Virus record (IMG/VR): IMGVR_UViG_3300027759_000056
Coordinates: 32,001-96,000 of that record
From: a virus
Direction: 5' to 3' (one strand)
Length of the DNA: 64,000 nt
In this document: piece by piece, positions 18,152-33,128 of the stretch
How positions within the stretch are numbered: the first letter of the stretch is position 1
How the letters are laid out: every line of letters begins with the position of its first letter
The notes under the pieces: generated by a model
Database searches by the model: none
Told to the model about the DNA's origin: nothing
Seen by the model: the letters and a program-made list of their open reading frames with translations, nothing else
Translations under genes and position numbers: made by a program

Positions 18152-18715
18152 ATGAAAGTTATATTTTTGGACCACGATGGTGTTATATGTCTATCTGACA
18201 ATTGGGGTAATCGTTTCAAAAAACAAAAAGAGTGGGGCGGTCGTAAATTATCTATGGGTTTGAATGAAATCCCGTTGGAGTATCGTTTTGACAATTTTGA
18301 TAAAAAAGCGATTAAAGTACTTAATGAAATCTTAGAGGAAACAGATGCCGAAATTGTTGTGTCTTCAGATTGGAAGAAATGGGCAACAGTTGAAGAGATG
18401 GGAGAATATTACGAATCACAGGGTATTATCAAAAAACCAATTGCGTTTACTGACTCTATTTTATATGATGACTATGAGAATTTTCCATGGCATAACAAAT
18501 GGGAGTCAGAACAAACTCGTAGTTTGGAGATTGCACAATATCTTGGTCAGAATCCTGTAATTACACATTGGGTGGCAATAGATGATTTGAATATGTCATT
18601 GAGAGAGATAGATGATACATCTTGGGGATTGAAGAACTTTGTATTAACTCCTGTAAATAATGAAGGGATTAAACAAACGGGTATAAAAGAAAAAGTATTG
18701 GAATATTTATTATAA
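18152..18715 (+). CDS. HAD-superfamily phosphatase (Swiss-Army-Knife RNA-repair type)
   Basis: IFLDHDGV, IVVSSDW, WVAIDD motifs. Confidence 0.8.
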   Translation: MKVIFLDHDGVICLSDNWGNRFKKQKEWGGRKLSMGLNEIPLEYRFDNFDKKAIKVLNEILEETDAEIVVSSDWKKWATVEEMGEYYESQGIIKKPIAFTDSILYDDYENFPWHNKWESEQTRSLEIAQYLGQNPVITHWVAIDDLNMSLREIDDTSWGLKNFVLTPVNNEGIKQTGIKEKVLEYLL

Positions 18716-21613: not shown

Positions 21614-22090
21614 ATGGAAAAGGGGTTTATATCATCTTCAAAAGCAATCAAAGGATATACTGAATCAAAAATTGCCAAATCTGAAAACAACGATTGTGTT
21701 GTTAGAGCAATTGCATCAGCTGCGGATATGGATTATGATTCCGCCCACCAATTCGTTAAAGAAACATTCAATAGAAAAAATGGTAAAGGTACTTTTGGAC
21801 TTGGTACTGGTATGAATTTGTTGTCAAAGAATGGTAAACAAATTAACGGTAAAAACATTCAAATTATTTCTGAAGAACACAACACCATGTTGTATTATGT
21901 GGTAGTTAAAGGTGTAAAAAAATTAAGAGCAACAACAACCGCATCATTCATCAAAAAACACCCTGTTGGTTCTTATGTGGTTGTTGTTAAAGGTCATGCG
22001 TTTACCATCAAAGATGGTGTTGTTATTGGTAACCCTGATGATGGTAAAAAAATGAAAAAACACATTACAGGGGCTTGGAAAATTGGATAA
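21614..22090 (+). CDS. conserved phage hypothetical protein (DCVVRA motif)
   Basis: NNDCVVRAIASA...GHAFTIKDG; TATATTTG promoter at 21602. Confidence 0.65.
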   Translation: MEKGFISSSKAIKGYTESKIAKSENNDCVVRAIASAADMDYDSAHQFVKETFNRKNGKGTFGLGTGMNLLSKNGKQINGKNIQIISEEHNTMLYYVVVKGVKKLRATTTASFIKKHPVGSYVVVVKGHAFTIKDGVVIGNPDDGKKMKKHITGAWKIG

Positions 22091-22117
22091 TATGTTTTAA
22101 CTTTGTATAACAATAAT

Positions 22118-22195: not shown

Positions 22196-22330
22196 ATAAT
22201 TAGATGGGCGTAATGAGGGATGGTACCCGAGTCCCCAAGATTGGAGGTCACCAGTAATAGGTGGCCGTTGCGTCGTAAGGTTGTCTAATCCGTCCTGAAC
22301 GGTATTCGGTTCGAGTCCGACTCTAATTAT
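22196..22330 (+). ncRNA. tRNA-like structured RNA A (acceptor-like stem plus T-arm, expanded core)
   Basis: ATAATTAGA/TCTAATTAT closing stem; TCGG-TTCGAGT-CCGA T-arm; internal GGTCACC/GGTGGCC hairpin. Confidence 0.6.
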
Positions 22331-22336
22331 GAAAAA

Positions 22337-22402
22337 CTAACCCAGTTTCACAATGAGGGCTGATACCTTCGGAGTGGGGGTGACGGTCAGGAAAGACTGA
22401 CA
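22337..22402 (+). ncRNA. small structured RNA resembling C4/CI antisense RNA
   Basis: CAGTTTC-ACAAT-GAGGGCTG and CTTCGG hairpins; 3' TGACG-GTCAG-GAAAGA-CTGAC. Confidence 0.4.
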
Positions 22403-22407
22403 ACCAT

Positions 22408-22565
22408 AGTCAGGTGGCGGAATTGGTAGACGATAATGGAGTTATACTATCAAACACAGAGGGTGCGGCGTAGATGGGAACTACTACATTATCTCTTGGA
22501 CGCAAGAGAGCAATATAACCCTAACCATTTGGTATAACGTGTAGGTTCGAATCCTACCCTGACTA
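22408..22565 (+). ncRNA. tRNA-like RNA C with about 100 nt replacing the anticodon arm
   Basis: AGTCAGG/CCTGACT-A acceptor, Leu-type D arm TGGCGGAATTGGTAGACG, GTAGG-TTCGAAT-CCTAC T-arm. Confidence 0.7.
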
Positions 22566-22566
22566 C

Positions 22567-22660
22567 AAAAACATAAACTCAAGTACCCACACAGTGGTGA
22601 GACGGGCTAAGTAAGATACAATTCCTCGGAACTGGGAGTAGAGAGCTTGAGAGTGTTTTT
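22567..22660 (+). ncRNA. small structured RNA D
   Basis: AAAACAT..CTCAAG / CTTGAG..GTGTTTT closing helix around a GC-richer core. Confidence 0.4.
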
Positions 22661-22671
22661 TAATTAAAAAT

Positions 22672-27777: not shown

Positions 27778-27852
27778 AGCGGGGTGGAGCAGAGGTAGCT
27801 TGCGAGGCTCATAACCTTGAGGTCACAGGTTCGAATCCTGTCCCCGCTACCA
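27778..27852 (+). tRNA. tRNA-Met(CAT), initiator-like body with A1-U72
   Basis: AGCGGGG/CCCCGCT-A-CCA; CGAGG-CTCATAA-CCTTG. Confidence 0.9.
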
Positions 27853-28230: not shown

Positions 28231-28430
28231 AAAGAACCTTTTCTTACGGAAGTCCGATTAGCGCGGATGAAAGGAACCTTGACTTCACGGGAGTAGCTAC
28301 CCAATTGAAGCTTGAATGACTCAAGGTACTCTGTAATGGACCCTGCTCTATGGTGCACACATAACAGGTGATGGGGAACAAACCATCGGTAAAATCTAAA
28401 CCCACGGTGAGCGTGGAAGGAAAGTTTCTT
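28231..28430 (+). ncRNA. about 200-nt multi-branched structured RNA of unknown class
   Basis: AAGAACCTTTTCTT/AAGGAAAGTTTCTT closing helix; internal TCCG/CGGA, CCTTGA/TCAAGG, CCTG/CAGG, GATGG/CCATC, CCACG/CGTGG helices. Confidence 0.6.
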
Positions 28431-29437: not shown

Positions 29438-29511
29438 GGACGGGTAGCTCAACAGGTTAGAGCAGGATGCTTATATCATCAAGGTTGGGGGTTCAAGTCC
29501 CTTCTCGTCTA
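29438..29511 (+). tRNA. tRNA-Ile(TAT), rare in bacteria
   Basis: GATG-CTTATAT-CATC arm, GGACGGG/CTCGTCT acceptor, A73. Confidence 0.82.
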
Positions 29512-29525
29512 CTAAAAATTTAATT

Positions 29526-31372: not shown

Positions 31373-32038
31373 ATGGAAATGACTTATCCCGTAGCCGGAG
31401 AAACCTTTAATAGTAACTCATCATTTGGTATGAGAGGAACTGGTACACACAAAGGAATTGACCTTAAAGCCGATTCTGGTGACCGTGTAGTTGCCGCTTT
31501 ACCAGGTACTGTAATAAAATCAGACGATAATACTGACCCACAAGGTTATGGTGGACAAATATTAATTAAACACAATATTGACGGTGATATTTTTTATACT
31601 CGTTATGCTCACTTAAGAAAAAGATATGTTCAAGTAAATGAGAACGTTTCTCAGGGTGAAAAAATTGGAGAATCAGGTGGTGGTGAAGGTGATGCAAATA
31701 GAGGTAGAGCAACTGGTCCACATTTACATTTTGAATTATTAGATTACGGTCAAAAAGCAATTGACCCTGAACCATACTTAAAAGGTGCTTTAGCGGTTGG
31801 AGCTGCGGGTCTTGTTGCTGGAGGAACAAATAGTGGAAGTACAAGTTCATCAGGCTCAACTCTTAATACCGACGCTGCTGGAAAAGCGGTTGATAAAATT
31901 ATGGCTGGGTTTATGAAAGGATATTCACCTATAGGTTATTTATCATCACTAAAAGGATTGTCTGAACCAAAAAAAGAATCGGAAATTTCAAAACCAATAC
32001 TTGAAGATATAGAACGAATTAAACAACTCTTAAAATAA
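31373..32038 (+). CDS. M23-family peptidoglycan endopeptidase
   Basis: HKGID, YAHL, TGPHLHFE motifs. Confidence 0.9.
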   Translation: MEMTYPVAGETFNSNSSFGMRGTGTHKGIDLKADSGDRVVAALPGTVIKSDDNTDPQGYGGQILIKHNIDGDIFYTRYAHLRKRYVQVNENVSQGEKIGESGGGEGDANRGRATGPHLHFELLDYGQKAIDPEPYLKGALAVGAAGLVAGGTNSGSTSSSGSTLNTDAAGKAVDKIMAGFMKGYSPIGYLSSLKGLSEPKKESEISKPILEDIERIKQLLK

Positions 32039-32684: not shown

Positions 32685-32747
32685 AAAAATTTTATAAAAA
32701 AATATTAAATTAAAGTGGTCTAAATTGACCACTTTAATTGTTTTTAG

Positions 32748-33128
32748 TGGAGATGGAGGGTATCGAACCCTCGTCCAGACTACCTCAACCGATAGATACT
32801 ACACGTTTAGGTCAGTGTTTGCCAACACTCCGAAATTCACAATTCCCTTATTTTATAGTGGTTCGGTTTACTGAGAACTAATCCTCCACTTGTTTCTTTT
32901 TAGATAGAAACCACACCTCTAAAGACTTCTGTTCTTAGGTTAATGTCTCCCGACCTGTTTTGTAATAGCGATTAGGCTACTACAGAAGCGTTTTCACGGA
33001 TTAATCCGATAGTCGCCATTTTGTCTAAAACGTTGCCGTCTAATTTTTCGAACCAGTTTTTAATGAGTTATTTCAGCTCATACGTGCATCCATCAATCAA
33101 CAATACCTGTCGATTCCATGTCATCCCC
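32748..33128 (-). ncRNA. ssrA: tmRNA; tag ORF GNVLDKMATIGLIRENASVVA* at 33037-32972
   Basis: 5' GGGGATGACATGGAATCGAC; 3' GAGGGTTCGATACCCTCCATCTCCA; G3:U70 Ala acceptor; internal tag frame ending VVA-stop. Confidence 0.92.

Follow-up and report, generated by a model that had tools for sequence, protein, structure and literature searches.

A phage gene with tRNA ends and a 105-nucleotide insert, probably one of a large family of non-decoding RNAs

A gene at positions 22408–22565 of a phage DNA sequence belongs to a very large family of phage RNA genes that join the ends and elbow of a tRNA to exchangeable middles. The sequence, hereafter the window, is the whole 64,000-nucleotide (nt) stretch that was analysed (positions 32,001–96,000 of the IMG/VR virus record IMGVR_UViG_3300027759_000056), and coordinates given without a locus label are positions in it. 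As the source record is 112 kb long yet judged ~37% complete, it derives from a large phage. The gene comprises 158 bases, 105 of which form another RNA replacing the anticodon and variable arms. We consider that it probably (about 65%) specifies a non-decoding, tRNA-framed stable RNA, one of a large phage family in which a single leucine-tRNA chassis carries interchangeable structured inserts. A preliminary description made from the letters of the sequence had proposed a tRNA-mimic non-coding RNA rather than a decoding tRNA, which the family tests below and the lack of an anticodon support; it had also treated the element as a one-off, and here it was mistaken, as the element is one member of a family with hundreds. 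Labels of the type L002 denote the other loci that were compared.

A tRNA-derived frame common to a phage RNA family

The 25-nt pattern of the 5' end occurs in at least 119 IMG/VR contigs and, among 185,579 bacterial and archaeal species genomes, in five short contigs of metagenome-assembled genomes (MAGs); the family is essentially phage-only and very large, with hundreds of members. We extracted 103 distinct complete genes, which have a common 5' end, T arm, and 3' acceptor strand, with A73 present in 88 of the 103, while their middles range from 23 nt to ~120 nt and fall into 90 sequence-unrelated types. The element has the constant 5' end, the constant 3' end, and the exchangeable non-tRNA insert of these AGUCAGG-chassis RNAs. 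No further member was found in the 112-kb record.

A covariance model of homologs, named in the preliminary description as a way to check its proposal, was built on the chassis frame (model R1), and the chassis helices do covary. In the alignment of 150 matches from 100 loci, 98.7% of cells are standard pairs and changes on both sides occur at 13 of the 15 chassis pairs, a number reached in none of 500 column shuffles; controls with slid partners pair in only 22–42% of cells. Acceptor pairs 1–7 are 98.6% paired across the family, with compensatory changes at six of the seven, and the T stem is 99.7% paired, with compensatory changes at four of five pairs. The chassis is a selected RNA structure. 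Family members score ~46–90 bits with R1, against at most 37.8 bits for the true tRNAs of the window, that maximum belonging to the phage's own tRNA-Leu; the element scores 60.5 bits (E = 1.7e-12), far beyond chance. In the 47 rows without the exact 5' pattern, the acceptor-stem and T-arm sequences are almost invariant and the D arm is more variable. Outside the helices, U48 is kept in 129 of 138 members (93%) and A73 in 120 (87%).

Members also occur in arrays: L078 (174–284, minus strand), L110, L139, L092, L083, L100, and L131 each hold four to six or more in a row, with inserts that are all different. The tRNA-Met of the window at 27778–27849 has the exact T arm of the family and a similar acceptor start, and scores 32.9 bits with R1.

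The perfect 7-bp acceptor stem, the leucine-type D arm, and the canonical T arm reported in the preliminary description were all located in the element (Table 1), and its bases 5–25 match annotated tRNA-Leu genes with 100% identity in every one of the 5426 E. coli genomes. The Rfam tRNA model (RF00005) spans exactly 22408–22565 with 30.5 bits in E-value mode, with two large insertions (gathering score 29); the faster gathering-mode scan reported no match at the element, and ARAGORN with default settings made no call there. The Rfam search, also listed as a check in the preliminary description, returned no family other than the tRNA model at the element, and, with E allowed up to 10, none of intron or ribozyme type. 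By blastn, the element has no match among 50,697 phage records, and megablast with 18 kb around the element gave tRNA matches only. An exact 27-mer that runs from the D arm into the insert has no match in IMG/VR, because position 25 is unusual in this copy; the A found here occurs at that position in 8 of 138 family members by column counts. No Rfam entry or published description of the AGUCAGG-chassis family was found: a 2026 preprint on three bacterial tRNA-mimic families deals with other RNAs, and an IMG/VR structured-RNA survey contains generic tRNA-like candidates only.

Table 1. Coordinates of the parts of the gene, its predicted insert fold, and the upstream promoter-type box
Feature	Position	Strand	Remarks
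Bacteroidota-type -7 promoter box TAnnTTTG	22098–22105	+	12 nt upstream of tRNA-Phe; putative promoter
Acceptor stem, 5' strand, family-constant AGUCAGG	22408–22414	+	Pairs perfectly with 22558–22564; U at -1 (22407)
U8 and G9 (22415–22416) with leucine-type D arm (22417–22433)	22415–22433	+	G10–G12 stem, A14, A15, G18G19, A20a
Cargo domain (insert), 105 nt, replacing anticodon and variable arms	22434–22538	+	Kept with 0–1 changes in other phage contexts
Favoured closing helix of insert, 5' strand	22441–22449	+	Predicted to pair with 22530–22538
Inner branched region	22460–22522	+	Predicted helix 22460–22464/22518–22522 enclosing two hairpins (~22468–22487; 22492–22509, 4-nt loop)
Favoured closing helix of insert, 3' strand	22530–22538	+	Includes the second 7-mer flagged in the preliminary description
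Positions 47–48 (linker)	22539–22540	+	U48 (22540) able to form a Levitt pair with A15
T arm	22541–22557	+	5-bp stem, standard 7-nt T loop; two stem pairs deviate from the family majority, each with compensation
Acceptor stem, 3' strand, with discriminator A73 (22565)	22558–22565	+	No encoded CCA; next bases CAAAA

Conservation, exchange, and folding of the inserts

The contigs L002–L005 come from sister phages, in which the adjoining GDSL-type protein is 95% identical and the flanking non-coding DNA is 90–98% identical. The gene at their orthologous position is 79 nt long; it has the acceptor stem and D arm of the element and a T stem with two compensated changes, and in place of the insert it has a 28-nt hairpin region that includes a 5-bp stem with a GNRA tetraloop and has no anticodon. 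Further copies of the 105-nt insert were recovered from viral and metagenome contigs with a 20-mer and a 22-mer of its sequence. The insert is identical in the window, L153, the L147 group, and L155, and differs by one base in L078, L149, and L151. The flanks of these seven contexts are unrelated to one another, apart from those of L153, which belongs to the window's own lineage, and the chassis around the copies differ in D-loop length, at positions 13, 25, and 47–48, in the first T-stem pairs, in the T loop, and at one acceptor pair. In L078, the parts held in common with the window's genome are the element and ordinary tRNAs only. Based on the replacement at the orthologous locus and on identical inserts within differing chassis, these comparisons indicate that inserts are swapped in place and that the same insert travels between genomes and frames.

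Between L153 and the window, the flanks are 88–92% identical over 1.4 kb and the insert shows no change in 105 positions, for which P is ~1e-4 at the flank rate; the comparison indicates that the 105-nt insert is under selection. The preliminary description had considered that the insert might not be conserved, as in a decayed tRNA, and the finding of 0–1 changes across seven contexts goes against this. Within other insert types the closing helices are kept by paired substitutions (L068/L131, L084/L056, and the trio L119/L126/L109). Inserts fold better than their shuffles (mean z = -0.96, p = 1e-11) and are 2.4-fold enriched in GNRA-capped hairpins, and they look like compact folded modules, not single-stranded guides. 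A universal insert motif was not found, the k-mer enrichments being weak, and Rfam families in the 18 loci with the longest inserts are limited to matches of the tRNA model. In metagenomes the insert 20-mer occurs inside such tRNA frames only, save for one unrelated sequence in two contigs.

The preliminary description had drawn the insert as two helices leading to a branched region. All of its elements are present as sequence (helices 22435–22439/22525–22529 and 22441–22446/22514–22519, hairpin 22492–22509, and a second 7-mer at 22532–22538), but with the tRNA frame fixed its two-helix model reaches -32.0 kcal/mol, whereas pairing 22441–22449 with 22530–22538 reaches -41.3 kcal/mol. In the family, too, the commonest layout has a helix ending 2 nt short of the T stem, where class II tRNAs have their variable arm; it is found in 59% of members vs 45% of shuffled inserts. 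Due to its lower energy and this common layout, we prefer the 22441–22449/22530–22538 pairing as the predicted fold. Covariation cannot decide the pairing, since the seven known copies are identical or one base apart. The conformational switch proposed in the preliminary description rests on one repeated 7-mer, and the two pairings are ~9 kcal/mol apart.

Leucine identity, proposed mechanism, and alternative readings

The E. coli leucyl-tRNA synthetase (LeuRS) recognizes A73, A15-U48, G18G19, A20a, and contacts between the D loop and T loop, while the anticodon and the long variable arm are unimportant to it and tRNA-Leu variants without both are still charged (PMC9976931). All of these identity nucleotides are present in the element: A73 at 22565, A15 and U48 at 22422 and 22540, G18G19 at 22425–22426, and A20a at 22428, together with U8-A14 at 22415 and 22421. 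With these identity elements kept and the anticodon of no account to LeuRS, the mature RNA is probably charged with leucine, and the earlier suggestion of a LeuRS substrate gains support at the level of the identity set. The upstream consensus of the family ends in AAAAT, and the element has U at -1 and C at +74, as do the ordinary tRNAs of the phage. A Leu/Phe-tRNA protein transferase was not found in the 112-kb record; it is likewise absent from the control genome Bacteroides thetaiotaomicron.

These features suggest a course from gene to RNA in which expression, processing, leucylation, and the mode of exchange are all deduced from sequence. The element would be co-transcribed with tRNA-Phe and the neighbouring small RNAs from the box at 22098, and its chassis would lead to release by host tRNA enzymes through RNase P cleavage after U-1, 3' trimming, and CCA addition. 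Once leucylated, the RNA could be bound by EF-Tu or at least be protected at its 3' end, and it would be unable to read a codon. The 105-nt insert, as a compact folded module, would be the selected, phage-specific part. At the DNA level, the constant ends may serve as homology handles through which inserts or whole units are exchanged between co-infecting phages, possibly with the help of neighbouring homing endonucleases. In L031, L089, and L108, the 3' acceptor strand is split by an ~85-nt insertion, made up of a hairpin with a conserved 8-nt loop and a TAnnTTTG box, followed by an HNH gene; Pfam confirms HNH_3 in L031 (5114–5728) and L108 (9936–10528), and the L089 copy is on the minus strand. 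Homing endonuclease genes are also found among the tRNA and small-RNA genes of phages T5 and T4, and endonuclease-driven gene conversion at the constant ends is a plausible exchange route. Similar hairpin cassettes occur in L028, L041, and L045.

Several observations weigh against the reading of the element as a processed, leucylated RNA with a selected insert. Conservation of the exact acceptor-stem sequence goes far beyond the needs of LeuRS or RNase P, which suggests either a sequence-specific reader or a DNA role as a recombination handle. The near identity of the insert copies might stem from recent horizontal spread and not from selection. The alignment used for covariation was fitted to R1, and part of its sample was found by the fixed 5' pattern. 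In this copy, A at position 25 creates a G10/A25 mismatch in the D stem that might weaken the elbow, and A1-U72 is unusual for a bacterial tRNA-Leu. A gene for a CCA-adding enzyme is absent from the 112-kb record (~37% of the genome), so maturation would depend on the host. Lastly, no partner protein is conserved beside family genes, the best cluster being present at 5 of 103 loci.

Among the alternatives, the preliminary description had itself suggested an intron-containing tRNA, which would decode as tRNA-Ile(UAU) or tRNA-Leu once the insert was removed. ARAGORN with introns allowed does call tRNA-Ile(UAU) at the element, with a 76-nt intron at the canonical place, and group I introns are known from bacterial tRNA-Leu genes. 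Yet the anticodon stem of this call has an A/A mismatch at its end, position 32 is G, and the body has leucine rather than isoleucine character; at 76 nt the called intron would be much shorter than group I introns, intron and ribozyme models find no match, and bacteria have no bulge-helix-bulge splicing. The same procedure forced onto the 103 members returns ~20 specificities, stop 'anticodons', and many intron positions, a scatter that reflects a model forced onto non-tRNA sequence. The insert flanks vary as far as the D and T stems themselves, unlike those of a self-splicing group I tRNA, the sister-phage ortholog has a tetraloop and no anticodon, and the phage already possesses a normal tRNA-Ile(UAU) at 29438–29512. 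The element lacks the 5-bp anticodon stem, 7-nt loop, U33, and consistent anticodon of a decoding tRNA, and we regard an intron as highly improbable. Anticodon-arm-like hairpins are not enriched in the inserts of the family (6 vs 4.8 ± 2.2 in shuffles), which is also one point against the decoy for anticodon-loop nucleases that the preliminary description had entertained. A functionless, decayed tRNA-Leu gene with a random insertion would account for the missing anticodon and for the G10/A25 mismatch of this copy, but it is hardly credible given an insert that is invariant or nearly so in seven contexts, compensatory changes at 13 of 15 chassis pairs, A73 and U48 kept in ~90% of members, and hundreds of members in diverse phages. 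A tmRNA-like (transfer-messenger RNA-like) or peptide-coding RNA has tRNA ends around an internal domain in its favour, as well as an ATG-to-TAA frame of 33 codons (22436–22537) that takes up almost the whole insert and exceeds in length the frames of 99.4% of shuffles. Across the family inserts, open frames are not enriched (0.101 vs 0.116 in shuffles), so this frame is probably due to chance; its start codon lies inside predicted helices, and the two insert substitutions that fall in it, one synonymous and one Trp to Cys, are uninformative on coding. In accord with the earlier remark that there is no tmRNA-like tag, the element has no RF00023 match and no tag frame, pair 3-70 is U-A where alanine charging requires G-U, and the D arm is complete where a tmRNA has no D stem. 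The true tmRNA of the phage was located at 32745–33128, and translation of the element is very improbable.

Three further alternatives assign the element another role. The frame could be a processing signal only, which recruits RNase P and 3' nucleases to cut polycistronic transcripts, as plant-mitochondrial t-elements do, with the insert as folding stuffer. The upper half of a tRNA suffices for RNase P and RNase Z, 57 of the 103 members are surrounded by protein genes and have no further tRNA within 3 kb, and there is no universal insert motif. A stuffer should drift, however, and the 105-nt insert keeps to 0–1 changes while chassis and flanks diverge; A73, A15/U48, and A20a are unnecessary for cutting and are nonetheless kept, GNRA hairpins are enriched in inserts, and the RNA-only unit around the element of the window already has cut sites at tRNA-Phe. 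We give this reading a small probability. Smaller still is that of an antisense or guide RNA, in which the insert would pair with a phage or host transcript like C4 RNA, although specificity regions that vary between constant handles would fit and the C4 RNA of phages P1 and P7 is a precedent for a phage regulator processed by RNase P. The longest match of inserts to their own locus, on either strand, averages 9.87 nt vs 9.92 nt for foreign inserts, with 5.9% reaching p = 0.05, and that of the window's insert is 11 nt vs a control mean of 12.3; moreover, the inserts are highly self-paired, and the insert 20-mer is almost confined to such tRNA frames in metagenomes. An element acting primarily at the DNA level, whose constant ends are targets of a homing endonuclease or recombinase, which spreads selfishly as a unit, and whose RNA is incidental, would explain why the acceptor-stem sequence is nearly invariant beyond pairing, why whole units stand in unrelated flanks, and why the 3' acceptor strand in L031, L089, and L108 is interrupted by HNH genes that bring a promoter cassette of their own. 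As the principal role this too is improbable, since compensatory changes in all three helices are of RNA type, with G-U intermediates, leucine identity nucleotides outside the helices are kept, and insert helices covary within insert types. A DNA-level role and an RNA role are not exclusive.

A bolder extension of the non-decoding RNA reading, which we consider unlikely but worth stating, is that Bacteroidota phages share a pool of hundreds of RNA cargos on one processed, CCA-tailed, leucylated chassis, and that these cargos are conflict effectors shuffled via homing endonucleases. In detail, the cargos would be stabilised or delivered, e.g., by EF-Tu, and could act, for example, as RNA decoys or as inhibitors of host defence or translation factors. 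If this is correct, the family would be an RNA counterpart of the swappable islands of anti-defence protein genes.

Genomic setting and comparison with known RNAs

The window contains 29 tRNA genes, one tmRNA, and one freshwater-1 RNA according to ARAGORN and Rfam scans. The tmRNA, on the minus strand, scores 112 bits in the Rfam scan and was not reported by ARAGORN, and the freshwater-1 RNA (28332–28394) scores 73.8 bits; both lie in or near tRNA arrays. The Bacteroidota promoter box TAnnTTTG is enriched, with 139 copies vs 104 ± 9 in shuffles. Based on this enrichment and on the bacterial contigs with relatives of the element, which are mostly MAG fragments of Flavobacterium and Chitinophagaceae, the host is probably a freshwater member of the Bacteroidota. 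The box at 22098 is the last plus-strand copy before 23838 and is likely the start of an RNA-only transcription unit that holds the element.

Three neighbouring RNA elements can be described. At 22196–22330 is a second tRNA-like RNA with another frame: it has a terminal stem of 7 bp and a T stem of 4 bp with a T loop, and it lacks a leucine-type D arm. L002–L005 and L153 do not have this insertion, R1 does not detect it, and a 21-mer from it matches nowhere else in IMG/VR. In L149, tRNA-Phe is followed by a homolog of 73% identity, with four compensated changes in the terminal stem and without the 26-nt hairpin at ~22236–22262. The non-coding stretch directly upstream of the element (22333–22407) is 90% identical in sister phages and includes a hairpin with a GAAAGA loop at 22392–22407; comparable hairpins beside family members in L024, L034, and L061 show covariation in the stem. 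Just downstream of the element, a conserved ~75-nt RNA motif at 22578–22651, followed by a T run at 22656–22661, is represented by six sequence variants in other phage loci, with compensated changes in its 6-bp closing helix and two inner helices. This motif has no Rfam match, likely forms a pseudoknot around a conserved 14-nt core, and may end the RNA operon.

Among the protein-coding neighbours, PHROGs and Pfam searches of the window found nothing tRNA-related except the gene at 18152–18715. Its product has a HAD domain of the type in 'Swiss Army Knife' RNA repair proteins (PF18143; E = 3e-20), a hint that the phage repairs damaged tRNA. The gene at 21614–22090 encodes a 158-aa protein of phrog_3754, homologs of which immediately precede family members at 5 of the 103 loci, making it the most frequent neighbour.

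If the RNAs are made and charged as proposed here, phages would have invented the 'tRNA scaffold' trick naturally and on a large scale, with many inserts on one frame, a large class would be added to the short list of bacterial tRNA mimics, and the 40-year-old orphan RNAs of T5 and T4 would gain a family context. At present, annotation overlooks such genes or mistakes them for odd tRNAs or tRNAs with introns, with specificities assigned at random. The family also offers a testable system for the leucylation of anticodon-less RNA, for the partners of the inserts, and for the effect of the inserts on the outcome of infection.

The chassis is most readily compared with class II bacterial and phage tRNA-Leu (RF00005), with which the element has in common the acceptor, D and T arms, A73, A15/U48, and G18G19, and from which it differs in having a branched RNA of 105 nt and no anticodon stem-loop. 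The tmRNA (RF00023), which is chargeable and processed by RNase P, similarly builds a tRNA-like upper half from its 5' and 3' ends around a large internal domain, but its missing true D arm, G3-U70, tag frame, pseudoknots, and need for SmpB have no equivalent in the element. The tRNA-like structures of plant RNA viruses (turnip yellow mosaic virus, TYMV; brome mosaic virus, BMV; tobacco mosaic virus, TMV) are substrates of the CCA-adding enzyme, of synthetases, and of elongation factor without decoding; these differ in being the 3' ends of RNA genomes, with pseudoknotted acceptor stems and no exchangeable insert. YrlA and other bacterial Y RNAs (RF02553) are non-coding RNAs of bacteria and phages with a tRNA-like domain, although their connectivity is permuted and the RNA ends in a Ro-binding stem rather than an acceptor stem; the element has no RF02553 match, and the 112-kb record has no Ro60 (TROVE) gene. 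The same layout as that of the element is found in the engineered 'tRNA scaffold' of Ponchon and Dardel (2007), which reportedly carries a foreign RNA in place of the anticodon stem for processing and stability. That construct is man-made, whereas the natural family uses a leucine-type class II frame in which the variable arm is also replaced.

The known look-alikes of the family, which is absent from Rfam, are old orphan coliphage RNAs. The small stable species 1 and 2 RNAs of T4 (rnaC and rnaD; NC_000866, 70908–71171) lie at the end of a tRNA cluster, adjoining a homing endonuclease gene, and rnaC terminates with a T arm and a stem resembling an acceptor; they differ in having no leucine-type D arm, a partial R1 match of 24.9 bits, and no sequence relation. 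The closest known RNA is RNA1 of T5 (AY543070, 30501–30644, 144 nt), annotated as a 'tRNA-like stable RNA with unknown functions', and T5 RNA2 and RNA3 are grouped with it here. Like the element, RNA1 lies in a phage tRNA region with HNH endonuclease genes and combines a leucine-type D arm and a canonical T arm with ~70–85 nt of other RNA replacing the anticodon and variable arms. Its acceptor stem and insert are unrelated in sequence to those of the element, and it is not known as part of a constant-frame family with exchangeable inserts. With R1 it scores 28.9 bits, vs 30.7 bits for the tRNA-Leu of T5 and ~46–90 bits for family members. Judged from these comparisons, T5 RNA1 is an analogue of the AGUCAGG-chassis RNAs, or at most a very distant relative.

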